Part shown: one piece after another, positions 329 to 56,315 of the stretch
Layout: each line of letters opens with the position of its first letter
Position numbering within the stretch: position 1 is the stretch's first letter
From: Deltaproteobacteria bacterium
GTDB lineage: Bacteria; Myxococcota_A; UBA9160; SZUA-336
NCBI GenBank assembly: GCA_031396695.1
Contig: JANNLG010000016.1
Location: 54,494 to 118,493 of the forward strand
DNA length: 64,000 nucleotides
Direction of reading: 5' to 3'
Program-made: the position numbers and the translations under genes
The notes under the pieces: generated by a model
Seen by the model: only the letters and a program-made list of their open reading frames with translations
Told to the model about the DNA's origin: nothing
The model's database searches: none

Positions 329-1591
329 ATGTCGGACCCCGTCGCGCTCGAAGCTCCGCCCGCGCGCCCGCGCACGTTCGCGGCGCTGGGCGTGCCGAGC
401 TTCCGGGTGATGTGGGCGGGGACCTGGGCCTCGTACATCCCTTTCTTCATGGCGACCGTCGTGAACGGCGTGGTCGCGTTCCAGATCGCGCACGTGAACC
501 GCGCGGTCGGCACGGTGGTGTTCGCGCAGGGCGTGGCGATGGCCGCGCTCGCACCGCTCGGCGGCGCGGGTGCCGATCGCTGGCCCAAGCGGCGCGTGCT
601 GGTGGTGACGCAGCTCGCGGCAGCGGCGGTGTTCGGCGCGTTCGCGCTCCTGCTCGCGGCCGAGCGCCTCTCGATCGCCGCGCTCGCGGTGGGCTCGTTC
701 GTGCTCGGCGTCTCGATCTCCTTCCTCGGCCCGGCGCGCCAGGCGCTGGCCGCGGAGCTGGTCGGACCCGAGCTGCGCGGAAACGCGGTCGCGCTGAACC
801 AAGTTCCGCTCACGGGCTCTCAGGTGCTGGGTCCCGCGATCGCGGGGCTCCTGCTCACGTCTCCGTACGGTGCGACCGGCGCGTACGCGCTGATGAGCGC
901 GCTCTACGTCGCCGCGGCGATCTCGCTCGCGCCACTGCCGCCGTCGGTCGCGCGCACGAACGCCTCCGACACGCACGTGCTCGCGGATCTGCGCGACGGG
1001 CTCCGCTACGTCGCGACGCACCGGCGCCTGCGCCTGCTCGTGGGCTTCTTCGTGGGCGTGATCATGATGGGCTTCTCGTACATCACCGTGCTGCCGGGCC
1101 TGGTCGAGCACGCGCTCGAACGCTCGGCGGAAGCCGTGCCGACGCTGTTCTTCACGAGCGCCCTGGGCGGTCTTGCGGTCACGCTCGGCACCGCGCGGCT
1201 GGCGGACTCTCGCCGCGCGCTGCCGCTCTTCCTGGCCATGCCGTTCGTGTTCGCGGCGGGCCTCTTCGGCCTGTCCGCCGCGCCGTCGTACGCGCTCGCG
1301 GTCGCGAGCATGTTCGTGGTGGGCATGGGCTTCGGCGGCTTCCAGACCCTGAACGCGGCGGTGATCGTGCGCACGACCGAGCCAGCCTATCTCGGGCGCG
1401 TCTTCTCGCTCACCATGCTCGCGTTCGCGGGCGTCTCGCTGATGAGCCTGCCGGTCAGCGTGCTGGCCGACGCGATCGGCGAGCGCGTGACGCTGGCGAC
1501 GCTTTCCGGTGTGGTGGTAGGGATCGCGCTGTTCGTCGCGGTCGCGCTGCGTCGGATCGACCGTCCTCAGGCCAGCTCGACCGACACGTAG
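329..1591 (+). CDS. MFS transporter
   Basis: Twelve-helix-like hydrophobic profile and MFS-like loops in the 266..1591 ORF. Start is probably the second ATG at 329 (MSDPVALE...); 266 is an alternative. Confidence 0.6.
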   Translation: MSDPVALEAPPARPRTFAALGVPSFRVMWAGTWASYIPFFMATVVNGVVAFQIAHVNRAVGTVVFAQGVAMAALAPLGGAGADRWPKRRVLVVTQLAAAAVFGAFALLLAAERLSIAALAVGSFVLGVSISFLGPARQALAAELVGPELRGNAVALNQVPLTGSQVLGPAIAGLLLTSPYGATGAYALMSALYVAAAISLAPLPPSVARTNASDTHVLADLRDGLRYVATHRRLRLLVGFFVGVIMMGFSYITVLPGLVEHALERSAEAVPTLFFTSALGGLAVTLGTARLADSRRALPLFLAMPFVFAAGLFGLSAAPSYALAVASMFVVGMGFGGFQTLNAAVIVRTTEPAYLGRVFSLTMLAFAGVSLMSLPVSVLADAIGERVTLATLSGVVVGIALFVAVALRRIDRPQASSTDT

Positions 1592-6794: not shown

Positions 6795-7100
6795 ATGGTT
6801 CAGCCGATGCCCGGGGATGCCCTCAGCCAGACCTTTGCCGCCCTCGCCGATCCGACGCGGCGCGCGATCCTCGCCCAGCTCGCGGCGGGCGATGCGTCGG
6901 TCACGGAGCTCGCCGCGCCGTTCGCGATGAGCCGGCCGGCGGTCTCGAAGCACCTGAAGGTGCTCGAGCGCGCCGGACTGATCGCGCGCGCGCGCGACGC
7001 GCAGTGGCGCCCGAGCCGACTCGAGGCGTATCTGCGCGAGCTGCAGAAGCCGTCCAAGCCCGTCGTCAGCAACGGGAAGAAGAATGTCCGCAAGCGCTAG
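6795..7100 (+). CDS. ArsR/SmtB family transcriptional regulator
   Basis: ALADPTRRAILAQLAAGDASVTELAAPFAMSRPAVSKHLKVLERAGLI helix-turn-helix. Confidence 0.8.
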   Translation: MVQPMPGDALSQTFAALADPTRRAILAQLAAGDASVTELAAPFAMSRPAVSKHLKVLERAGLIARARDAQWRPSRLEAYLRELQKPSKPVVSNGKKNVRKR

Positions 7101-7569
7101 CACCGCAGCCGCCGCGTCCGACCTCGAACTCGCGCTGACGCGGGTCTTCGACGCGCCGCGCGAGCTCGTCTTCGCCGCGTGGACACGAGCCGAGCACGCC
7201 GTGCACTGGTTCGCGCCGCACGGCTGCACGGTCACATCGTGCACCATGGGCCTGCGCGTCGGCGGCCCGTGGCGCTCGTGCATGCGCTGGCCGGACGGCA
7301 GCGACCACTGGCAGGGCGGCGAGTTCCGCGAGATCGTCCCGCCCGAGCGGCTGGTCTTCACGTACGCGTGGGAGGACGAGAACGGCCGACCCAAGCACGA
7401 GACGCTCGTGACGGTGCGGCTCGAAGCACGCGGCGCGCAGACCGCGCTCACGTTCCACCAGGCGGTGTTCGAGTCGGAGTCGTCGCGCACCTCGCACGGC
7501 GGCGGCTGGAACGGCTCGCTCGACGTGCTCGCTGAGTACCTGGCGAAGCGAACGGGGACGCGCACATGA
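7084..7569 (+). CDS. SRPBCC (AhsA1/activator of Hsp90 ATPase-like) domain protein
   Basis: Typical ArsR partner; LTRVFDAPRELVFAAWTRAEHAVHWF; overlaps arsR by 17 nt. Confidence 0.65.
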   Translation: MSASASTAAAASDLELALTRVFDAPRELVFAAWTRAEHAVHWFAPHGCTVTSCTMGLRVGGPWRSCMRWPDGSDHWQGGEFREIVPPERLVFTYAWEDENGRPKHETLVTVRLEARGAQTALTFHQAVFESESSRTSHGGGWNGSLDVLAEYLAKRTGTRT

Positions 7570-24800: not shown

Positions 24801-25325
24801 CTACTTGGCGTCGGAAATTGCCTGTAGGACCGAGTCCACGATCGCCTCCGCCTTGGCGCGCATCTCGGCGTCGGTGGCGTCCTGGATCGGGTGAGGTACG
24901 AAGACGCAGCGAACGTCGGGCAGGCCGAGTGCGCGCGCCTGACCCGCGGCGGCGTCCTCGAAGACGCTCGAGGCCACGAAAACCGACGGCCGACCCTGGA
25001 GCTCGAACCAAACTGTGTCGTGCACACTGCACGTCGTACAGGAGCCTCAATCGGCCAGGGCTTCGATCACGAAGCCGCACTCCTCTGCGATCCGGCGCCG
25101 CAGTTCGAGCGGCGCGGGCTTGGTGAACGTGGGTTTGCGGTAGCGCCGGAACGCGACGTCGGGCAATCGCTCGCGCAGTAGCTGCTCGAGCCGGTCGAGC
25201 AGCACATCGCCGCGCGGCTTGATGATGTCGAGCAACGCGACCGTGCCCGTCACGGTGCCGTGTCGAGCCGCGAGCGCGCGGCGGATCGGCACGCGCTCAT
25301 CGGTGGGATCGAGAATCGTCGTCAC
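24801..25325 (-). CDS. UGSC-motif selenoprotein (in-frame TGA at 25049..25047 read as Sec)
   Basis: ORFs 25047..26003 (C-terminal ~92 codons) and 24801..25025 are in the same frame, separated only by TGA. Read-through gives ...IAEECGFVIEALAD-U-GSCTTCSVHDTVWFEL... (Sec-Gly-Ser-Cys then CxxC). Start GTG 25325 overlaps the upstream TGA (GTGA). A hairpin lies 7 nt downstream of the UGA. Confidence 0.6.
25013..25041 (-). promoter_or_regulatory. SECIS-like hairpin downstream of in-frame UGA
   Basis: mRNA sequence CUGU-ACGA-CGUG-CAGUGUG-CACG-AC-ACAG: 4+4 bp stem with internal loop and 7-nt apical loop, starting 7 nt 3' of UGA. Position is consistent with bacterial SECIS elements. Not energy-computed. 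Confidence 0.4.
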
Positions 25326-27949
25326 CCGGAGCTTCCCTCGTCTGTTTCGATCGCGCGGGTCGTCATTACAGAGCCGAGCGGTCCCGACACCCAGCCCTGG
25401 AAGTATGCGCCGAACTTCCCCGCCTCGCCGCCCGCGACGACCAGGGTGATGTCCCCGGGCGTGCGGAACTTCGGCACGCGCGCCTCGGCGCCGAGCTTCG
25501 CGAGCAGCTCGTCGGGCAGGCCCTCGGCGCAAACGTCGTCGCGCAGCAGCTCGCGCAGCGGACGCGACGTGACCTCCTGAATGCGCGCGCGGAGCTGATC
25601 CTTCGTGAAAGCGTCGCGTTTGAAGGTGTCGACGTGCTCGGGCGGCACGACCACCACGATCTCGCCGTGCAGGTAGTGCTTGGGGTGGTTCGCCGCCTGC
25701 AGCACGAGTCCGTAGCTGGTGGCGAGCCCGCGCGCATCGCGGGACAGCTGGTCGATGAAGCCGTTCGGCGCGCCGCCGGCGAAGGCGGTGACGGTGCTCT
25801 GCTCGCGCGCGAAGCCGCGCTCGACGTGCAGCGGCGCCCAGTCGCTGCGCTCTTCGTTCTCCGCGAAGCACATCGTGAACTTGCCCGGCTGACCGAGCGC
25901 CGCGCGGTCGACCTCGCCGGGTCGACCGCCACCCAGGTTCCGCACCACGAGCTGCACCGCCCGGCCGATCGTCGCGTTGGCGCGGTTGCCCTGCCCCAGG
26001 CAATTGATTCCGGAGTTCATGCCGATGCGCGCGCGGATCGGGCCGTTCACGATCAGCACCGGCGTGGGAAAGAACGTGGTCGCCAACACGCCGTGCAGGT
26101 TGAACTCGGGCGTGCAGATCGCCTCGACCGCTGCGATCACGACTGGAAGGTAGGCGGGCTTGCAGCCCGCCATGACCGCGTTGATCGCGATCTTCTCGAC
26201 CGTCGCGGGCGCGTAGTTCGGCGCGACCTCGGCCACCACGTCCTGCGCCGCGCGGCGTGTGCCCTCGAGCATGCGCATGACACGCTCGGGTGTCGGCGGA
26301 ACGACGGGTAGCCCGTCCGTCAGGCCCTGGTCGAACAGGAACTCGAACGGATCGTCGGCGTCGCCGAGCTCGATCCGGCGCGCGCGCATCGGGCTGCTCG
26401 AGGCACGCGCCTCGAACCGCGCGGCCACTTCGGGATCGTTCGTGCGCGAGCCGCAGCCGGGGCGAAGCTCAGGTAGACGCGACCAATCGCGCGCCGGAGC
26501 GGGCGTTCCGGCGAGCTGCGCCATGCGTTCGAATAGCGCGCGCCAATCCTCGCGCGCGAAGCCGACGTAGCGAGCGAGCTCCTCGCCCCCTGCGTCGAGC
26601 AGCACTGTGGTCGGAACTGCATCGATCTCCGCGCCGAACGAGACCGTGAGCGCGGAGTCGTCGAGAAACGGCGTGCGCAGGCCGTGCTTCTCGCGCAGCG
26701 CGCGCCCGCCGTCGTCATCCTGCGAGACGATCGCCACGTCGAGCACCGTGCCGAACGCTTCGTGCGCCGCCTCGACGATCGGAAGCGTGAGCTCGCAGGT
26801 GGGACAGCCCGCGTGGGCGAACACGAGCAGCCTCGCTCGGCCCGACGGCCACACGTGCGCGCGCGCATCGGTGTCGAGCAAGCGAAACGCGGGAACCGCC
26901 GCCACGCGCGCAGTATAGCCGGAGCGCCAGCGAGCCTGCGGGGCAGGCTTCGGAGCGCGCATCTTCTCGAGCTCGTGCTTGAAGCGCTCGCACGGGTCCT
27001 CGTCGTCGACGCGCGGCGTGAACCAGATCAGATCGAACTCCGTGCCGAACTCGGCCGCGCGTAGCGACGGGTCCTGCTTCGATTCGACGGAACCGGCGGG
27101 CACCTCGCTGAAGGCGAGCGTGAGCACTCGGCGCTGCGGCTCCCGCCGAGCCAAGTAGAGCGGCACGCCGCGGTCGCGCCGGACGTGCCCCGTGCCCGCG
27201 ATCAACACGCCACCGTCGGACTCGCCCGACCCGAGTAGCGCGTCGGCGAGCGTCGCGTCGCGCGCGCGTTGCACGGCGATCATCGCGTCGACCATCGCCT
27301 CGGGCGCCATCCCGCAGTGCGCCTCGCGCACTTCGTCCGCGAACGCCCGCCGCGCCTCGTCCGACGGGGGAGGCTCGAGCGCGAGCCGCGCGCGCTCGGC
27401 GGGCGGAAGCGCGTCGAGTGAGCGAAGCCGCATCTGCGCGAGCTGCGCGCGAGCGAGATCTCCGGGCACGATCGCCAACCGCGCTGCGAGCGCCGCCGCG
27501 AAGATCGGCCGGTACAGCGCGAAGTCGGGCCAGCCGCCGTGCGCCCAGTCGAGCGCCACGGCGAGCGCGTCGGGGTCGTCGGGATGCGCCGCGATCGCGG
27601 CCTCCAACACCGCTGCGCGATCGCGGGGAATCATCTCGAACACCACGGCCGGCCGCCGTCCCGCGCCCGCGAGCGATTCGACCAGCCACGCCTGCAGCCG
27701 GTGATGGTCCGGGTTGTCGTGCTTCTCGCCCAGCAGCACGAACGCGGAGCCGCGCGCGCGCGAGAGAACGTCGGCGGGCGTGACGAAGCGACGCTGTTCG
27801 GTGTCGAGGATGCGCCCGACCAACGCGTCCTCGCGACCCAGCGGTGCCTGCCAGGCGAGCCACGGCTCTGGCACCGCTCGCGGCGCGATCGCGGAATTCG
27901 CGCAGCCAACGACGAGGCTCGCGAAGAGCAGCGCGGTGGCGAGCCGCAT
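25322..27949 (-). CDS. 876-aa lipoprotein: ChaN-family domain + TlpA-like thioredoxin (CPTC) domain + C-terminal domain of unknown function
   Basis: Single stop-free frame from ATG 27949. Lipobox LVVGCANS. ChaN motifs VLLGEKHDNPDHH and VVFEMIPRD. Redoxin segment LLVFAHAGCPTCELTLPIVEA ... VPTTVLLDAGG. Then ~430 aa with Cys-containing conserved-looking blocks (AINAVMAGCKPAYLPVVIAAV, GINCLGQGNRANATIGRA). The upstream part of the 25322..28480 ORF is shadow. Confidence 0.6.
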   Translation of the reverse strand: MRLATALLFASLVVGCANSAIAPRAVPEPWLAWQAPLGREDALVGRILDTEQRRFVTPADVLSRARGSAFVLLGEKHDNPDHHRLQAWLVESLAGAGRRPAVVFEMIPRDRAAVLEAAIAAHPDDPDALAVALDWAHGGWPDFALYRPIFAAALAARLAIVPGDLARAQLAQMRLRSLDALPPAERARLALEPPPSDEARRAFADEVREAHCGMAPEAMVDAMIAVQRARDATLADALLGSGESDGGVLIAGTGHVRRDRGVPLYLARREPQRRVLTLAFSEVPAGSVESKQDPSLRAAEFGTEFDLIWFTPRVDDEDPCERFKHELEKMRAPKPAPQARWRSGYTARVAAVPAFRLLDTDARAHVWPSGRARLLVFAHAGCPTCELTLPIVEAAHEAFGTVLDVAIVSQDDDGGRALREKHGLRTPFLDDSALTVSFGAEIDAVPTTVLLDAGGEELARYVGFAREDWRALFERMAQLAGTPAPARDWSRLPELRPGCGSRTNDPEVAARFEARASSSPMRARRIELGDADDPFEFLFDQGLTDGLPVVPPTPERVMRMLEGTRRAAQDVVAEVAPNYAPATVEKIAINAVMAGCKPAYLPVVIAAVEAICTPEFNLHGVLATTFFPTPVLIVNGPIRARIGMNSGINCLGQGNRANATIGRAVQLVVRNLGGGRPGEVDRAALGQPGKFTMCFAENEERSDWAPLHVERGFAREQSTVTAFAGGAPNGFIDQLSRDARGLATSYGLVLQAANHPKHYLHGEIVVVVPPEHVDTFKRDAFTKDQLRARIQEVTSRPLRELLRDDVCAEGLPDELLAKLGAEARVPKFRTPGDITLVVAGGEAGKFGAYFQGWVSGPLGSVMTTRAIETDEGSSG

Positions 27950-28590
27950 CAGCCCGATTCCAGGTCGACGCCCGCGAGCGCGAGTCCGATCCAGACGATC
28001 CCGAGCAGCAGCGACGCGAGCGATGCCGCCACGAACACGCGCCGATAGGCGCGGCTCGCCTCCTGTTGCGGCGCGAGCACCCCGAGCAGCCAGGCGATCC
28101 CCATCATCGAGACGACGGTGCCTGCGCCGAAGCCGGCCAGATAGAGCGACGACTCCAGCCAGGAATGCATGCCGGCGGCGGGCAGCACCGCCAGCGTGGC
28201 GCCCGTTCCGACGAGCCCGTGCAGCGTGCCGATCGAGAGCGCGGCGGTCGCGTGAATGTGAACGTGCCCCCGGCCGGCCGCGTGGGAGAAGTGGTCCACT
28301 GCGCGGCGCTGGTGCCGCAACCCCCACAGTCCGACGGCCACGAGCACGAACCCGACCAGGTAGTCGCCCGCGTCCCCGAGCAGGTCCAGGTCGAGCCAAT
28401 CTGTCGCCGAGACGACCAGCAGAGCCACCGTGATGATGCCGAGCGCATGACCGATGCCCCAGCGCAGGCCGACGACCCACGCTTTCTCGCGCGCCTCGAC
28501 CGAGAACGGCGCGAGCGCGGCGACGTGATCGGGCCCGAGCACCACGTGCCCGAAGCCGGCTGCGAGACCGGTGAAGAAGACGAGGATCAC
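27949..28590 (-). CDS. HupE/UreJ-like (or NicO-like) metal transporter membrane protein
   Basis: Polytopic membrane protein with GFGHVVLGPDHVAALAP (H-x4-G-x-DH type motif) and HVHIH. GTG start overlaps the gamma-CA stop (GTGA); stop overlaps the downstream ATG. Confidence 0.5.
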   Translation of the reverse strand: MILVFFTGLAAGFGHVVLGPDHVAALAPFSVEAREKAWVVGLRWGIGHALGIITVALLVVSATDWLDLDLLGDAGDYLVGFVLVAVGLWGLRHQRRAVDHFSHAAGRGHVHIHATAALSIGTLHGLVGTGATLAVLPAAGMHSWLESSLYLAGFGAGTVVSMMGIAWLLGVLAPQQEASRAYRRVFVAASLASLLLGIVWIGLALAGVDLESG

Positions 28591-29123
28591 GGGGTCGGAC
28601 GCGCCAGCGCGGCCCGGTACTCGGCCGCGAGCTCCACGTAGTGGCGGTTCTGCTCGTCGAGCACCGCGCGTTCCTCGTCGGACACGGGCCGGACGAAGCG
28701 GGCGGGCCGGCCGAGCCAGAGCTCGCGCGAGCCGACGCGCTTTCCGGGCGAGAGCAGCGAGCCTGCGCCCAGCATGCCCTCGCTCGCGACCACCGCGCCG
28801 TCCAGGATCACCGAGCCCATACCCACGAAGGCGCGATCCTCGAGCGTGCAGGCGTGCACGATGCAGCCGTGGCCGATCGTGACCTCTACACCGATCAGCG
28901 TCGGCAGCCCCTCGCGCGAGACGTGGATGATCGAGCCGTCCTGGAAGTTCGTGCGCGCGCCGATCCGCACCTGCTGCACGTCCCCGCGCACCACGCAGCC
29001 GAACCACACGCTCGCCTGTGCGCCGAGCTCGACGTCACCGATCAGCGTCGCCCCCGGAGCCACGAACGCATCGGGCGCGAGACGCGGCAGGCATCCGCGG
29101 TAGGGCAGCAACCGGGCTTCCAA
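28587..29123 (-). CDS. Gamma carbonic anhydrase family protein (hexapeptide-repeat, YrdA/PaaY-like)
   Basis: Left-handed beta-helix hexapeptide repeats (IGDVELGAQASVWFGCVVRGDVQQVRIGARTNFQDGSIIH) with the His ligand pattern. Confidence 0.8.
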   Translation of the reverse strand: MEARLLPYRGCLPRLAPDAFVAPGATLIGDVELGAQASVWFGCVVRGDVQQVRIGARTNFQDGSIIHVSREGLPTLIGVEVTIGHGCIVHACTLEDRAFVGMGSVILDGAVVASEGMLGAGSLLSPGKRVGSRELWLGRPARFVRPVSDEERAVLDEQNRHYVELAAEYRAALARPTP

Positions 29124-29235
29124 AGTGCGCGGATTCTACCGCCCGCGCGCAGGCTTAGAAGCTCGGGGGCGGCGCCGCGAACGGTCCCGGGATGAATCTT
29201 GACTTGTTTGTACAGTTTATTAGGCTGCGGGCTCG
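29124..29235. promoter_or_regulatory. Divergent promoter region between the gamma-CA/selenoprotein operon and rrf2-suf operon
   Basis: 112-bp spacer with the only AT-rich tract locally (CTTGACTTGTTTGTACAGTTTATTAGGCT), containing a TTGACT -35-like hexamer and partial dyad symmetry. Likely the Rrf2 operator and promoters. Confidence 0.4.
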
Positions 29236-29709
29236 ATGCAGCTTCTCGCGCAAGAAGAGTATGGGTTGCGCTGCCTGATCCAGGTGGCCCGGCAGCGAGG
29301 CCCTGACCCGCTCACGATCCCCGAGATCGCCGAGCGCGAGGGGATTTCGCCCGAATACGCCGCCAAGCTGATGCGCGCGCTGCGTCAGACCGAGTTCGTG
29401 CTCAGCACGCGCGGCGCCGGGGGTGGCTATCGGCTCGCGCGCCCGGCCGGCGAGATCACCGCCTGGCAGGTGATCCAGGCGCTGGGCGGCTCGCTCTTTC
29501 CGGCCGAGTTCTGCGAGACGCATCCCGGCCAGCTGCGCGACTGCGTCCACTCGACCGGCTGCTCGCTGCGCGGACTCTGGAGCTCGGTCGAGAGCGCGAT
29601 CCGCAACGTGCTCGAGGGCGTGACGCTCGCCGACCTCGCACGCGACGACCGGATCCTGTTCGGGATCGACGGGCCGCCGCTCGAGCCCAAAGCGCAGGCG
29701 CCGCGATGA
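29236..29709 (+). CDS. Rrf2 family transcriptional regulator (IscR/SufR-like)
   Basis: N-terminal wHTH ([24 protein letters not shown]) and C-terminal Cys cluster (C..C..C: [18 protein letters not shown]) for Fe-S sensing. Confidence 0.8.
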
Positions 29710-31154
29710 GCAGCAATCCCGAGATCGCCGCGCTCACCAATCGCGAGTACGAGGCGGGCTTCACCACCGACGTCGAGTCCGAGACCGTCGCGCCCGGGCT
29801 CGACGAGAACGTGATCCGGCGCATCTCCGAGAAGAAGGGCGAGCCGCAGTGGCTGCTCGACTGGCGCTTGCGCGCGTACGCGCGCTGGCTCGAGATGCGC
29901 GAAGAAGACGCGCGCTGGGCGAAGGTCACGTTCCCGAAGATCGACTACCAGGCGATCAGCTACTACTCCGCGCCCAAACCGCGTAAGAAGCTCGGCAGCA
30001 TGGACGAGGTCGACCCGGAGATCCGGGCGACGTTCGAGAAGCTCGGCATCCCGCTCAGCGAGCAGAAGATGCTCTCGGGCGTCGCGGTCGACGCGGTCTT
30101 CGACTCGGTCTCGGTCGCCACCACGTTCCGCGCCAAGCTCGCCGAGCTCGGCATCATCTTCTGCTCGTTTTCGGACGCAGTGAAGAGTCACCCGGAGCTG
30201 GTGCGGAAATATCTCGGATCGGTCGTGCCCTACTCCGACAACTACTTCGCGACGCTGAACTCGGCCGTGTTCACCGATGGCTCCTTCGTGTACATCCCGC
30301 CGGGCGTGCGCTGCCCGATGGAGCTCTCGACCTATTTCAGAATCAACGAAGCGAAGACCGGCCAGTTCGAGCGCACGCTGATCGTCGCCGACGAGGGCGC
30401 GTACGTGTCGTATCTCGAGGGTTGCACCGCGCCGATGCGCGACGAGAACCAGCTGCACGCCGCGGTGGTCGAACTGGTCGCGCTCGAGCGCGCGACCATC
30501 AAGTACTCGACCGTGCAGAATTGGTACCCGGGCGACAAGGAAGGCCGCGGCGGCATCTTCAACTTCGTGACCAAGCGCGGCGCGTGCCGCGGGAAGCGTT
30601 CGAAGATCAGCTGGACGCAGGTGGAGACCGGCTCTGCGATCACCTGGAAGTACCCGAGCTGCATCCTGCAGGGCGACGAATCGGTGGGCGAGTTCTACTC
30701 GGTCGCGGTGACCAATCACTATCAGCAGGCCGACACCGGCACGAAGATGCTGCACATCGGCAAGAACACGCGCAGCACGATCGTCTCGAAGGGCATCTCG
30801 TGCGGACACGGCCAGCAGACCTACCGCGGCCTGGTCGAGATCCACCAGAAGGCGACCGGCGCGCGCAATCACTCGCAGTGCGACTCGCTCTTGATCGGCG
30901 ACAAGTGCGGCGCGCACACCTTTCCCTATCTGGATGTTCGCAACGCGAGCGCGCAGGTGGAGCACGAGGCCACCACCAGCAAGATCAGCGACGACCAGCT
31001 GTTCTACTGCCAGCAGCGAGGGCTCGGCACCGAGGACGCCGTTTCGATGATCGTGAACGGCTTCTGCAAGGAGGTCTTCCGCGAGCTGCCGATGGAGTTC
31101 GCGGTCGAGGCCTCCAAACTTCTGTCCGTGACGCTCGAAGGCGCGGTCGGTTAG
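29706..31154 (+). CDS. sufB: Fe-S cluster assembly protein SufB
   Basis: 482 aa, strong SufB conservation throughout (e.g. ...[18 protein letters not shown]...); ATGA overlap with rrf2. Confidence 0.9.
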
Positions 31155-31166
31155 CACGGAGGCGTG

Positions 31167-31927
<761 letters not shown>

Positions 31928-31931
<4 letters not shown>

Positions 31932-33256
31932 GAGGCACGCCGGCCGAGCTCGCCTTCGCGCGGCACTTCGCGGCCGCGCGGGTAGCGCAGGCGTCGCGCG
32001 AGCCGGCCTGGCTCGCCCGACACCGTGCGGAGTCGTTCGCCGCGTTCGAGGCGCAGGGTCTGCCGACCGCCAAGCACGAGGACTGGCGCTTCACGTCGCT
32101 CGCGAAGCTCGAGCAGATCGAGTTCACGGCGGGCGGAGTGGACGCGAGCGCGCCGACCGCGGAGCTCATCGCCGCTTCGCGAATCGCGCTGGGACCGGCA
32201 CACCGACTGGTGTTCGTGAACGGATGCTACGCGGCGCAGCTCTCCAGCGTCGGCGCGCTGCCTCCAGGCTGTCGCGTCGCCCCGCTCTCCGCGCTGCTCG
32301 GCTCGGACGGCGAAGCGGTCGAGCGCGTGCTCGCGAGCGCCGCCGAGCCCAAGCGGCGCGCGCTGGTCGACCTGAACTCCGCGCTGTGGAGCGACGGCGT
32401 GTTGATCGAGCTCGAGCCCGGTGCGGTGCTCGATCGTCCCGTGCACCTGCTCTTCCACCAGTCCGGAGCCGACGCCCCGGTCGGCGCCCACGTGCGCACG
32501 CTGATCGCGGCCGGCGCAGGTAGCCGCGGCACGATCGTGGAGCAACACAGCGGCGAGACGCGCCATCCCGACCTGACGAACGCCGTGACGGAGATCCGCG
32601 CCGATCGCGGCGCGCAGCTCGACCACGTGCTGGTCCAGGACCTTCCCGAGCAGAGCACCGCGTTCAGCGCGCTGCTGTCGCGCCAGGAAGCGCAGAGCCG
32701 GCTCGGCTTGCACGCGTTCACGCTCGGCGCCGCGCTCGCGCGCGCCGAGGTCGAGAGCCGGCTCGAGGGCGAAGGCGCGGAGCTCGCGCTCTACGGCCTG
32801 TACCTCGGACGCGGCACGCAGCACCCCGACCAGCACACCACGATCGACCACGCCGCGCCGCGCACGAACAGCCGCGAGCTGTTCAAGGGCATCCTCGACG
32901 AGCGCGCGCATGGCGTCTTCCACGGCCGCATCCACGTGCGGCCCGACGCGCAGAAGATCAGCGCGGACCAGACCAATCGCGCGCTCCTGCTCTCGGACCG
33001 CGCGACGATCAACAGCAAGCCGCAGCTCGAGATCTACGCCGACGACGTGAAGTGCAGCCACGGCGCGTCGATCGGCCAGCTCGACGACGAGCAGCTCTTC
33101 TACCTGCGCGCGCGCGGACTCGATCTCGCGACGGCGCGCGCGCTGTTGACCGTCGCGTTCGCCAGCGAAGTGCTCGAGAAGCTGCCGCACGATGGCTTGC
33201 GCGCGTCGCTCGAGCGCGCGCTGCTCGGCTGGCTGCCGAGCGGAGGCGGAGCATGA
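31928..33256 (+). CDS. sufD: Fe-S cluster assembly protein SufD
   Basis: Position after sufC with ATGA overlap. C-terminal SufB/D-family conservation (DQTNRALLLSDRATINSKPQLEIYADDVKCSHGASIGQLD). Confidence 0.8.
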
Positions 33257-34476
33257 GCGCGCTCGACGTCGAAGCGCTGCGCAAACAGTTCCCGATCCTC
33301 GCGCGCCGAATCCACGGCAAGCCGCTCGTCTATCTGGACAGCGCGGCGTCGAGTCAGAAGCCGGCCTGCGTGATCGAGGCGATCGCCGACTACTACGGCC
33401 GCTACCACTCGAACGTCCACCGCGGCGTGCACACGCTCTCCGAGGAAGCCACCGCGGCTTACGAGCACGCGCGCGCGAAGGTGCGCGACTTCGTGCGCGC
33501 GCAGTCTTCGCGCGAGATCGTGTTCGTGCGCGGCACGACCGAGGCCATCAACCTGGTCTCGCAGGCGTGGGCGCGACCGCGGCTCCGCCCGGGCGACGAG
33601 GTGCTCGTGACCGAGCTCGAGCACCACTCGAACATCGTGCCTTGGCAGATCGTGTGCGAGCAGACCGGCGCCAAGCTCGTGGTCGCGCCGATCGACGAGC
33701 GCGGCGACGTGATCCCCCAGGAGTACGCGCGGCGGCTCGGCGAGCGCACGCGCGTGGTCGCGCTCGCGCACGTCTCGAACGCGCTCGGCAGCGTGCTGCC
33801 GGTGGCGGAGTTCGCGCGCCAGGCGAAGTCCGTCGGCGCGCTGGTGGTCGTCGACGGCGCGCAGGGCGTTCCGCACATGCCCGTCGACGTTGGCGCGTTG
33901 GGCTGCGACTTCTACGCGTTCTCGGGTCACAAGATGTACGCACCGACGGGCATCGGTGCGCTGTTTGGACGGCTCGAGCTGCTCGATGCGATGGAGCCGT
34001 GGCAGGGCGGCGGCTCGATGATCCGCAGCGTCTCGTTCGCGAAGACCACCTTCGCGAGCTCACCCGAGCGCTTCGAAGCCGGCACGCCCAACATCGAAGG
34101 CGCGATCGGCCTGGGCGTCGCGATCGAGTGGCTCGAGCGGCTCGACTTGTCAGCCGTTCACGCGCACGAGGCGGATCTGATCGCGTACGCGACCGCGTCG
34201 CTCTCGGCGATCCCGGGCGTGCGCTTGATCGGGGATCCACGCGAGCGCGCGGGCGCGGTGTCGTTCGTGGTCGGCGACGTACACGCACACGACGTCGGCA
34301 CGATCCTCGACGGTGAAGGCATCGCGATCCGCGCGGGACACCACTGCGCGCAGCCGGTGATGGACCACTTCGACGTGCCCGCCACCGCGCGCGCGTCGTT
34401 CGCGGTGCACAACGGCCGCGACGACGTCGATCTTCTGGTCGCCGGCGTTCGCCGCGTGCAGGAGATCTTCGCCTGA
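33253..34476 (+). CDS. sufS: Cysteine desulfurase SufS
   Basis: Class II aminotransferase/desulfurase: PLVYLDSAASSQKP, SGHKMY (PLP Lys), HHCAQP active-site Cys region; ATGA overlap. Confidence 0.85.
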   Translation: MSALDVEALRKQFPILARRIHGKPLVYLDSAASSQKPACVIEAIADYYGRYHSNVHRGVHTLSEEATAAYEHARAKVRDFVRAQSSREIVFVRGTTEAINLVSQAWARPRLRPGDEVLVTELEHHSNIVPWQIVCEQTGAKLVVAPIDERGDVIPQEYARRLGERTRVVALAHVSNALGSVLPVAEFARQAKSVGALVVVDGAQGVPHMPVDVGALGCDFYAFSGHKMYAPTGIGALFGRLELLDAMEPWQGGGSMIRSVSFAKTTFASSPERFEAGTPNIEGAIGLGVAIEWLERLDLSAVHAHEADLIAYATASLSAIPGVRLIGDPRERAGAVSFVVGDVHAHDVGTILDGEGIAIRAGHHCAQPVMDHFDVPATARASFAVHNGRDDVDLLVAGVRRVQEIFA

Positions 34477-34928
34477 TGTCCGATCTGCGCGAGCTGTACC
34501 AGGAGGTCATCCTCGACCACACCAAGCGCCCGCGGAACTTCGGGACGCTCGAGCACGCGACCCATCGCGCGCAGGGACACAACCCGCTGTGCGGCGATCA
34601 GCTCGCGCTGTTCGTCGAAGTCGAAGGCGACCGCCTGCGCGACGTGAGCTTCGCGGGCCGCGGCTGCGCGATCTCGACCGCGTCCGCATCGCTTCTGACC
34701 GAAGCGTTGAAGGGCAAGACCACCGCCGAGGCGCACGCGCTGTTCGAGCGCTTCCACGCGGCCGTGACGTCGTCGTCCGACCAGCCGATCGACGTGGCGG
34801 GTCTCGGCAAGCTCGCGGTGCTCGCGGGCGTTCGCGAATTCCCCATGCGCGTGAAGTGCGCGAGCCTGGCCTGGCACACGCTCGAGGCCGCGCTCGCCCG
34901 ACGCGCCGAGCCCGTGTCGACGGAGTAG
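34476..34928 (+). CDS. sufU: SUF system NifU-family Fe-S assembly protein SufU
   Basis: HNPLCGDQL..., GRGCAIS and the third Cys (KCASLA), typical of SufU; TGATG overlap with sufS. Confidence 0.8.
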   Translation: MSDLRELYQEVILDHTKRPRNFGTLEHATHRAQGHNPLCGDQLALFVEVEGDRLRDVSFAGRGCAISTASASLLTEALKGKTTAEAHALFERFHAAVTSSSDQPIDVAGLGKLAVLAGVREFPMRVKCASLAWHTLEAALARRAEPVSTE

Positions 34929-34931
34929 ACC

Positions 34932-35270
34932 ATGAGCATGGATTCGATCGAGACCCGAGACCCCGCGACCGAGGCCCTGCGCGAGAGCGTGATCGAGGTG
35001 CTGCGCAGCATCTTCGATCCCGAGATCCCGGTGAACATCTACGAGCTCGGGCTGGTGTACGGCATCGAGATCGGCGAGGAGAACCACGTGAAGGTGCGCA
35101 TGACGCTCACCTCGCCCATGTGCCCCGTCGCCGAAAGCCTTCCCCCCGAAGTCGAGCAAAAGGTCCGCCAGATCCCCGGCGTCGCCCACGCCGAAGTCGA
35201 CCTCACCTGGGAACCCACCTGGAACCCTTCCATGATGTCCGAAGCCGCGAAGCTCCAACTCGGCTTCTAG
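34932..35270 (+). CDS. sufT: SufT/DUF59 (MIP18-family) Fe-S assembly protein
   Basis: DPEIPVNIYELGLVY...VKVRMTLTSPMCPVAE motif of DUF59. Confidence 0.75.
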   Translation: MSMDSIETRDPATEALRESVIEVLRSIFDPEIPVNIYELGLVYGIEIGEENHVKVRMTLTSPMCPVAESLPPEVEQKVRQIPGVAHAEVDLTWEPTWNPSMMSEAAKLQLGF

Positions 35271-55690: not shown

Positions 55691-55946
55691 TCATGCGAGC
55701 CGAGATGATTCTGCGGATCACGACGCCGGCCTCGGCCCGGTCGGTGTAGACGACGGTGAGCGCATTCCCCTGAGCCAGTCCGATCGTAACCACACGCTGC
55801 TCCCCGTAGTCCCGGCGCTGATCCTGGCGCTCGAGCGTGGGGCCCTCGAATACGAGGGTTGCGAACTCGAAGTCGAATCCGCGTGCACGAAGGTTTTCTT
55901 CACTCCTGCGAAGATCCCACGCGAAGCGCACTCGTCCAAAATACAT
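55641..55946 (-). CDS. brnT: BrnT toxin (DUF497 ribonuclease)
   Basis: FAWDLRRSEENLRARGFDFEFATLVFEGP...VVTIGL...ISARMSDRRERQAY matches the BrnT/DUF497 pattern. Start is ATG 55946 or the GTG 5 codons downstream. Confidence 0.6.
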   Translation of the reverse strand: MYFGRVRFAWDLRRSEENLRARGFDFEFATLVFEGPTLERQDQRRDYGEQRVVTIGLAQGNALTVVYTDRAEAGVVIRRIISARMSDRRERQAYYQALSQE

Positions 55947-55961
55947 CTGTATATACAGATG
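55944..55961. repeat. Perfect 18-bp palindrome CATCTGTATATACAGATG overlapping brnT start codon
   Basis: Seen directly. Contains TATATA; candidate TA operator and/or -10 element. Confidence 0.5.
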
Positions 55962-56315
55962 CGCAATCGACGAGTTCGCGGAAGCGGCCACGGGCGGACG
56001 TGCTCCCGCCCCCTCGGCTTCTTGAAGGAAAGAGGCATCCAATTCGCGAATCCGACGGCTTCCTCTGTGGACGGTTCATCGCTCCTGGCTACGCCACGGC
56101 CTCACGATGGCGTCCACGTCGAGATCCGATGGATGCCACCTTCTAGGAATCGGTGGTAGAAAGAACCCCTACAGATCATTGCCTTCATGACATAGGCCAC
56201 TTGCGTTCGACCACGACGTGATCGACTACGACCGGCATCACTACACGTTGACGCGCGCGAGTGGACGGTCATCGAGGCCCGCGGACTCGCGCCGAGACGA
56301 ACGCAGGGGCGGGCC

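Follow-up and report, generated by a model that had tools for sequence, protein, structure and literature searches.

A putatively self-regulated SUF operon and its predicted Rrf2 operator in a myxococcotal genome

Which genes answer to the Rrf2-type regulator that heads a SUF operon in the deltaproteobacterial contig JANNLG010000016.1 (assembly GCA_031396695.1), and from which site would it act? The locus lies in a 64,000-nucleotide stretch of this contig (positions 54,494 to 118,493), referred to here as the window, whose G+C content is about 70%; the closest protein matches are from uncultured Myxococcota. Seven co-directional genes, identified by searches with curated profiles, occupy positions 29236-35270 of the window in the order rrf2, sufB, sufC, and sufD, followed by sufS, sufU, and sufT. 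A spacer of 112 bp (29124-29235) separates rrf2 from a divergently transcribed gene for a gamma-carbonic anhydrase (gamma-CA)-like protein. A sequence-only reading of the window had described a complete operon and a spacer of this length, both of which are borne out, and had proposed that the Rrf2 protein might regulate the divergent genes as well. The comparisons presented here point to a narrower role, in which the SUF operon is, with good probability, repressed by its own iron-sulfur (Fe-S)-sensing Rrf2 protein from an operator that lies on the promoter.

An operator-like element on the suf promoter

The AT-rich tract at 29188-29229 holds the most AT-rich 30-mer of the 64 kb (minimum GC 0.27) and, in agreement with the earlier reading, is the only place between 29124 and 35270 where a 30-nt segment has a GC content of 40% or less. 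Within this tract, on the forward strand at 29195-29218, lies a predicted Rrf2 operator, a 24-bp near-palindrome of the form AATCTTGAC-N6-GTACAGTTT with the half-site AAWCTnnAC. The site scores 40.5 bits on a matrix built from 31 sites of other loci, from which the window site was left out and on which the training sites themselves reach 18-45 bits; the runner-up among all matches on both strands of the 64 kb has 13 bits. Column statistics for 32 aligned sites give the consensus AAWCTnnAC-N6-GTnnAGWTT, in which symmetry holds at seven of nine positions and is broken at two, which form the TG of the -35 hexamer TTGAC. The imperfect AT-rich dyad escaped a repeat search of the spacer, whose sole hits were GC-rich inverted repeats (29139-29172).

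The suf promoter occupies the same bases. Its -35 hexamer, TTGACT (29199-29204, forward strand), is inside the left arm of the operator, and a -10-like hexamer of the form TAnnnT (TAGGCT, 29221-29226, forward strand) follows 16 nt 3' of the -35. The operator spans the -35 hexamer and 14 of the 16 bases of the promoter spacer. Across the 32 aligned sites TTGAC is invariant or nearly so, lying 34-38 nt upstream of the ATG in most loci in which rrf2 comes first, and relatives have TAnnnT at the equivalent position, 6-9 nt 5' of the ATG. Because the window ATG stands 9 nt past the -10 without a Shine-Dalgarno sequence, the suf mRNA probably has no leader or a very short one.

When one genome per species was scanned, relatives of the regulator were found to be encoded at 80 loci, which have two layouts. 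The rrf2 gene is first in sufBCDSUT in Myxococcota, Binatia, and some others (L001-L027), and last, after sufT, in Acidobacteriota, Armatimonadota, Ignavibacteria, and related groups (L028-L080). About 40 loci of several phyla carry the operator element before rrf2 or the first suf gene: it lies 38-49 nt upstream of the ATG in 25 rrf2-first loci, and before the first suf gene in 15 rrf2-last loci, wherever the fetched flank reaches. In the rrf2-first loci the 40 nt 5' of the ATG share the pattern aATCTTGACtnnTnnGTAyAGwTT, after which come TAnnnT and a further 6-9 nt. The half-sites are separated by N6 in the window and in all of the approximately 40 related sites. The right arm is GTAYAG in the window type and GTCAA in other phyla, and relatives in Armatimonadota have a perfect palindrome, AAGTTGAC-N6-GTCAACTT. 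Tandem copies are found in two to three rrf2-last loci (22-24 bp apart in L051 and L066, 66 bp apart in L044), and they count in favor of an operator because a plain promoter would need none.

Rrf2 paralogues that are unlinked to suf also retain the element; these paralogues precede genes for Mrp/ApbC, monothiol (CGFS) glutaredoxin, NfuA-like, A-type carrier, or ferredoxin proteins. The element thus tracks the Rrf2 family and Fe-S biogenesis genes rather than one promoter context, which is how an operator of this regulator should behave. The sequence-only reading had called for a search of the spacer for such an operator and of the genome for further copies; the AT-rich tract does carry an Rrf2-type site, nothing comparable occurs in the rest of the 64 kb, and the motif travels with the regulator's family across phyla.

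Several loci around these paralogues have features of their own. Fe-S genes of the kinds listed above lie directly 3' of operator-bearing Rrf2 paralogues in L007, L012, L019, L021, L023, L008, L054, and L041. A PilZ-domain protein of about 350 aa recurs with the CGFS glutaredoxin beside Rrf2 paralogues. L008 has, 1.8 kb away from its rrf2 gene, an operator and promoter copy that scores 37 bits (880-1025, reverse strand), with no open reading frame (ORF) behind it and a GC-rich hairpin about 100 nt downstream. This copy may drive an Rrf2-controlled small RNA; an Rfam search of the putative RNA gave no significant match.

The proposed mechanism is negative autoregulation. A cluster-bearing Rrf2 dimer would sit on 29195-29218, where it would cover the -35 and most of the promoter spacer and so keep RNA polymerase off. 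When clusters become scarce or damaged (e.g., by iron limitation or oxidants), the Rrf2 protein would lose its cluster and leave the DNA, and the whole operon, rrf2 included, would be derepressed. That the protein binds a cluster, that its holo form is the one that sits on DNA, and that regulation is negative are all proposed by analogy with RisR of Myxococcus xanthus, NsrR, RirA, and other Rrf2 sensors.

Several observations weigh against this mechanism. The suf -10 is weak, with three of six bases matching TATAAT, and a consensus scan of the 112-bp spacer for promoters and terminators called nothing; the -10 was missed by the scanner because so few of its bases match, and the promoter is instead deduced from conservation. 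The A of the ATG is the tenth nucleotide after the -10, slightly beyond the usual seven, and a leader of 1-3 nt is as likely as none. The cluster-binding loop is modeled at low confidence in the AlphaFold2 structure of the regulator, where residues 97-102 have a predicted local distance difference test score (pLDDT) below 50. Regulation could also be of the opposite sign, given that apo-IscR activates suf in Escherichia coli. Finally, the window protein and the subgroup to which it is tentatively assigned below (IS3) are known here from sequence alone, and for IS3 cluster binding is unvalidated experimentally, according to the authors who defined it (PMC9973013).

The operon, its regulator, and characterized counterparts

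The regulator gene (29236-29709, forward strand) encodes a protein of 157 aa that belongs to the Rrf2 family (PF02082, 122.4 bits vs. a cutoff of 30; TIGR00738, 113.4 vs. 73.3). The three-cysteine cluster that the earlier reading had noted has the spacing C93-x9-C103-x5-C109, and all three residues are invariant, along with C13, H96, and H105, in an alignment of 23 homologues of 64-90% identity. In the AlphaFold2 model (mean pLDDT 76), a winged helix-turn-helix, with helices at 5-19, 28-35, and 39-51 and its wing at 55-67, is followed by a poorly defined cysteine loop and then by a long (dimerization) helix at 110-128. The protein is expected to dimerize and, by analogy with other Rrf2 sensors, to coordinate an Fe-S cluster with C93, C103, and C109. 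Its top 38 fold matches in the PDB are all Rrf2 proteins (IscR, CymR, RsrR, and NsrR, at 16-32% identity), and none stands out.

Named identities within the family were tried and rejected. The regulator falls below the cutoffs for IscR (TIGR02010, 76.4 bits vs. 207.55; NF008110, 62.9 vs. 275) and for the Xanthomonas-type suf regulator (TIGR02944, 66.6 vs. 110.65). It also scores below each curated equivalog cutoff for CymR, NsrR, and RirA.

The six suf genes, all on the forward strand, follow closely. The sufB gene (29706-31154; 482 aa) matches NF008773 at 903 bits against a cutoff of 717 and overlaps rrf2 by ATGA. The sufC gene (31167-31931; 254 aa, with orthologues of 253-254 aa; TIGR01978, 358 bits vs. 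213) begins after a gap of 12 nt that contains GGAGG at 31158-31162. ATGA overlaps join sufC to sufD (31928-33256; 442 aa; TIGR01981, 279 bits vs. 222) and sufD to the cysteine desulfurase gene sufS (33253-34476; 407 aa; TIGR01979, 577 bits vs. 475), and a TGATG overlap joins sufS to sufU, which encodes the sulfur-transfer protein (34476-34928; 150 aa; TIGR01994, 158 bits vs. 92.5). The sufT gene (34932-35270; 112 aa; DUF59) begins 3 nt 3' of sufU and matches PF01883 as well as TIGR02945. All six components of the SufBCD-SufS-SufU-SufT set therefore score above curated cutoffs, SufT barely (146.1 bits vs. 143.4). The earlier claim that overlaps occur at every junction was too strong, as four of the six junctions overlap and two have short gaps. 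All seven genes are probably on one transcript from one promoter because the junctions from rrf2 to sufT are tight (overlaps or gaps of at most 12 nt). The last gene, sufT, is followed 70 bp downstream by a convergent gene, and a search for an intrinsic terminator 3' of sufT found none. The combination of SufU and SufT with SufBCD in the absence of SufA and SufE stands as first described: neither domain was found among the window's small ORFs with coding-like third-position GC, in a screen that was not exhaustive.

The closest characterized counterpart is RisR of M. xanthus, a member of the same phylum (Sourice et al. 2023, mBio, PMC9973013). There, risR-sufBCDSUT was demonstrated to be one operon by reverse transcription PCR, RisR (C92/C102/C108) carries a probable [4Fe-4S] cluster, and holo-RisR represses both suf and isc (PMC9973013). 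The DNA that RisR protects at Psuf includes the -35 and -10 and has the form T(t/g)GAC-N7-GTCC(t/a) with AT-rich flanks (PMC9973013). The two systems share the gene order from rrf2 through sufT, the C-x9-C-x5-C spacing, and an imperfect palindrome that lies on the suf promoter and combines a T(T/G)GAC half-site with AT-rich flanks. For RisR, negative autoregulation has been demonstrated; it would apply to the window regulator by analogy.

The two systems also differ. The M. xanthus sites, rebuilt from the mutagenesis primers of that paper, are AATGTGGACTGAAACGGTCCTGATT at Psuf and TTGACCAGTCCGGTCCA at Pisc, both with N7, whereas the window site has N6 and a GTAYAG right arm and does not match the RisR operator. 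About eight identities were counted by hand over a 33-aa cluster segment of RisR rebuilt from primers, and the N-termini differ (MLRMSKM in RisR). A tblastn search of related loci with this 33-aa fragment alone gave 27-38% identity at non-significant E-values. A GGAG leader precedes risR, in contrast to the window ATG that stands so near its -10, and the 64-kb window has no isc operon or second target. RisR itself was placed in subgroup IS6, whereas the family of the window regulator matches IS3 by synteny.

In Table S3 of the same paper, IS3 includes the Rrf2 genes situated just after sufT in Ignavibacterium, Melioribacter, Fimbriimonas, and a Chthonomonas sp.; one gene intervenes in Ignavibacterium album, and none does in Fimbriimonas ginsengisoli (PMC9973013). 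The same layouts recur in L050, L058, and L071 (Ignavibacteria) and in L057 and L067 (Fimbriimonas). None of the genomes of the loci analyzed here is in the tables of that paper. The post-sufT Rrf2 proteins of Ignavibacteria and Fimbriimonas are 48-50% identical to the window protein. Because of these matching layouts and this degree of identity, the window regulator appears to be a member of IS3, a subgroup without a characterized member. Its lineage within the Myxococcota differs from the listed IS3 cases in that rrf2 has been relocated to the front of the operon.

Two more distant systems can be compared. IscR of E. coli shares the Rrf2 fold, the three cysteines, and a role as an Fe-S sensor that controls suf, and its type 1 site (ATASYYGACTRWWWYAGTCRRSTAT, a string taken from the literature) also has a YYGACT half-site. 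It differs in its ligands (C-x5-C-x5-C plus histidine, binding [2Fe-2S]), in the GAC-N7-GTC core of its type 1 site, and in that the apo form activates suf through a separate type 2 site. SufR of cyanobacteria and actinobacteria is likewise an Fe-S-binding repressor encoded beside suf (PMC9973013). In contrast to the window regulator, it has an unrelated, ArsR-like helix-turn-helix fold, and the likeness is thus analogous rather than homologous.

The divergent genes and alternative readings

The E. coli case raises the possibility that the window Rrf2 protein, whether apo or holo, activates suf as apo-IscR does at the suf type 2 site. IscR illustrates that an Rrf2 protein can activate suf (PMC9973013), and the window site abuts and overlaps the -35, where class II activators bind as well. 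Activation is nonetheless improbable here. The site, from the -35 hexamer across most of the promoter spacer, is laid out like the footprint of the repressor RisR; with the left arm of the operator forming the -35, protein and sigma factor would compete for those bases; and cooperative repression would fit with the tandem upstream copies found in L051 and L066.

A second alternative concerns the reach of the regulator rather than its sign. The first divergent gene (28587-29123, reverse strand) encodes the gamma-CA-like hexapeptide protein and apparently starts with TTG at 29123. It is followed by genes for a membrane protein of 213 aa (27952-28590, reverse strand), a ChaN-family protein (PF04187), a thioredoxin-like/unknown protein, and a UGSC-family protein (PF24696). 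The sequence-only reading had labeled the membrane protein HupE, but it matches Pfam DsbD_2 (26.4 bits vs. a cutoff of 24.9) and not HupE/UreJ.

Two of these genes have unusual reading frames. The ChaN-family ORF continues stop-free into the thioredoxin-like/unknown ORF to give a frame of 875 aa (25322-27949, reverse strand), whereas in L081 and L082 the corresponding genes, of 339 and 527 aa, are separate and lie 21 nt apart; the long frame is either a real fusion or the product of a lost stop codon or assembly difference. The UGSC-family gene (24804-25325, reverse strand) has an in-frame TGA at 25047-25049, immediately followed by GSC. The calls of relatives split this gene into 92 and 74 aa, and PF24696 (172 positions) matches both halves (1-92 and 94-170). 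Selenocysteine read-through is likely because the profile matches both sides of the TGA.

If the single Rrf2 site in the spacer controlled both divergent operons, the gamma-CA/ChaN/UGSC genes would answer to Fe-S status, and the link would tie SUF induction and Fe-S sensing to a UGSC selenoprotein/metal operon in this Myxococcota lineage. Some features of the locus are consistent with shared control. Close relatives of 82-90% identity (L081, L082, L083, and L085) retain the divergent arrangement, the gamma-CA gene also adjoins rrf2 in L001, L002, L004, and L005, and the DsbD_2-like membrane protein gene does so in L006. ChaN-family proteins are linked to heme and iron uptake, and in L005 the operator begins just 31 nt from the gamma-CA -10, where steric effects are conceivable. 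The sequence evidence as a whole points the opposite way, and shared control is held to be unlikely. Other Rrf2-first loci, which are the majority, have no gamma-CA neighbor; this neighbor is limited to one Myxococcota subclade, and rrf2 lies at the far end of suf in other phyla. In addition, the published targets of RisR are suf and isc only (PMC9973013).

The spacer itself also argues for separate control. Footprinting of the window spacer against those of L081, L083, L085, and L001 separates it into two conserved blocks with about 30 bp of unconstrained sequence between them. Block B comprises the suf operator and promoter. Block A (29117-29163, reverse strand) is on the gamma-CA side, outside the suf unit, and includes a -10-like hexamer of its own (TAGAAT, 29138-29133) that is 8 nt 5' of the TTG start; L004 and L005 likewise have TAG(A/C)AT and then CCG 4-15 nt 5' of the gamma-CA start. 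The sole operator lies on the suf -35, with its center about 83 bp from the gamma-CA start codon, and no second operator near the divergent genes was found in any gamma-CA-linked locus. The gap between the gamma-CA -10 and the operator is 56 nt in the window, 44 nt in L001, 48 nt in L004, and 31 nt in L005, and because it varies among relatives there is no fixed helical phase between the two.

These comparisons suggest separate promoters and a single, suf-proximal site, the outcomes that the earlier reading had itself set against its proposal. The gamma-CA/DsbD_2-like/ChaN/thioredoxin-like/UGSC operon most likely has a promoter of its own. That the operator acts on this operon from a distance or indirectly is doubtful, and tuning from about -80 or through coupled divergent promoters a shade more so. 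A minus-strand gamma-CA promoter inside the AT-rich tract appears unlikely, in that no convincing hexamers occur there while the conserved TAGAAT adjoins the gamma-CA start. That start has a further peculiarity: the TTG is conserved and an in-frame upstream stop lies inside TAGAAT, which would leave little or no leader before a non-AUG start, an unusual combination.

The weakest alternative, a very improbable one, is that the conserved tract is only a strong promoter and that the Rrf2 protein binds elsewhere or senses another signal unrelated to Fe-S supply (nitric oxide or redox, as do NsrR and RsrR): the regulator is indeed below every curated equivalog cutoff, which leaves its effector unassigned, and is about equally distant from IscR, CymR, RsrR, and NsrR by sequence and fold. 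Against this alternative, promoter spacers are normally unconserved, whereas GTAYAG here keeps a fixed N6 and hardly varies from phylum to phylum; some sites are perfect palindromes or are repeated in tandem, the element tracks the rrf2 family even without suf, and all linked gene sets have Fe-S biogenesis or carrier functions.

Other features of the window and significance

Two features of the window lie apart from the SUF locus. A perfect 18-bp palindrome, CATCTGTATATACAGATG, occurs at 55941-55958 in the AT-rich tract 55924-55971, which holds the second most AT-rich 30-mer of the window. It is probably the site of another regulator because it scores just 7.5 bits on the Rrf2 operator matrix. 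At 6795-7569, a gene for an ArsR-type helix-turn-helix regulator (101 aa) is followed, with an overlap of 17 nt, by one for an AHSA1/SRPBCC-domain protein (161 aa), a small regulator-effector pair.

Repression of the SUF operon by its own Rrf2 protein, the reading favored here, adds little that is new in itself, as an Rrf2-headed sufBCDSUT operon repressed from a promoter palindrome is known experimentally in M. xanthus. The gain is comparative and modest. The window regulator seemingly represents an uncharacterized suf-linked subgroup of Rrf2 proteins that is present in Myxococcota, Binatia, Acidobacteriota, Armatimonadota, and Ignavibacteria. The operator proposed for this subgroup, AAnnTTGAC-N6-GTCAAnnTT, is testable, and its half-sites are 1 bp closer than those of RisR and IscR type 1 sites. 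The sequence data suggest that the regulon of the subgroup likely consists of Fe-S biogenesis and carrier genes, a comparative by-product that is useful, if not surprising.

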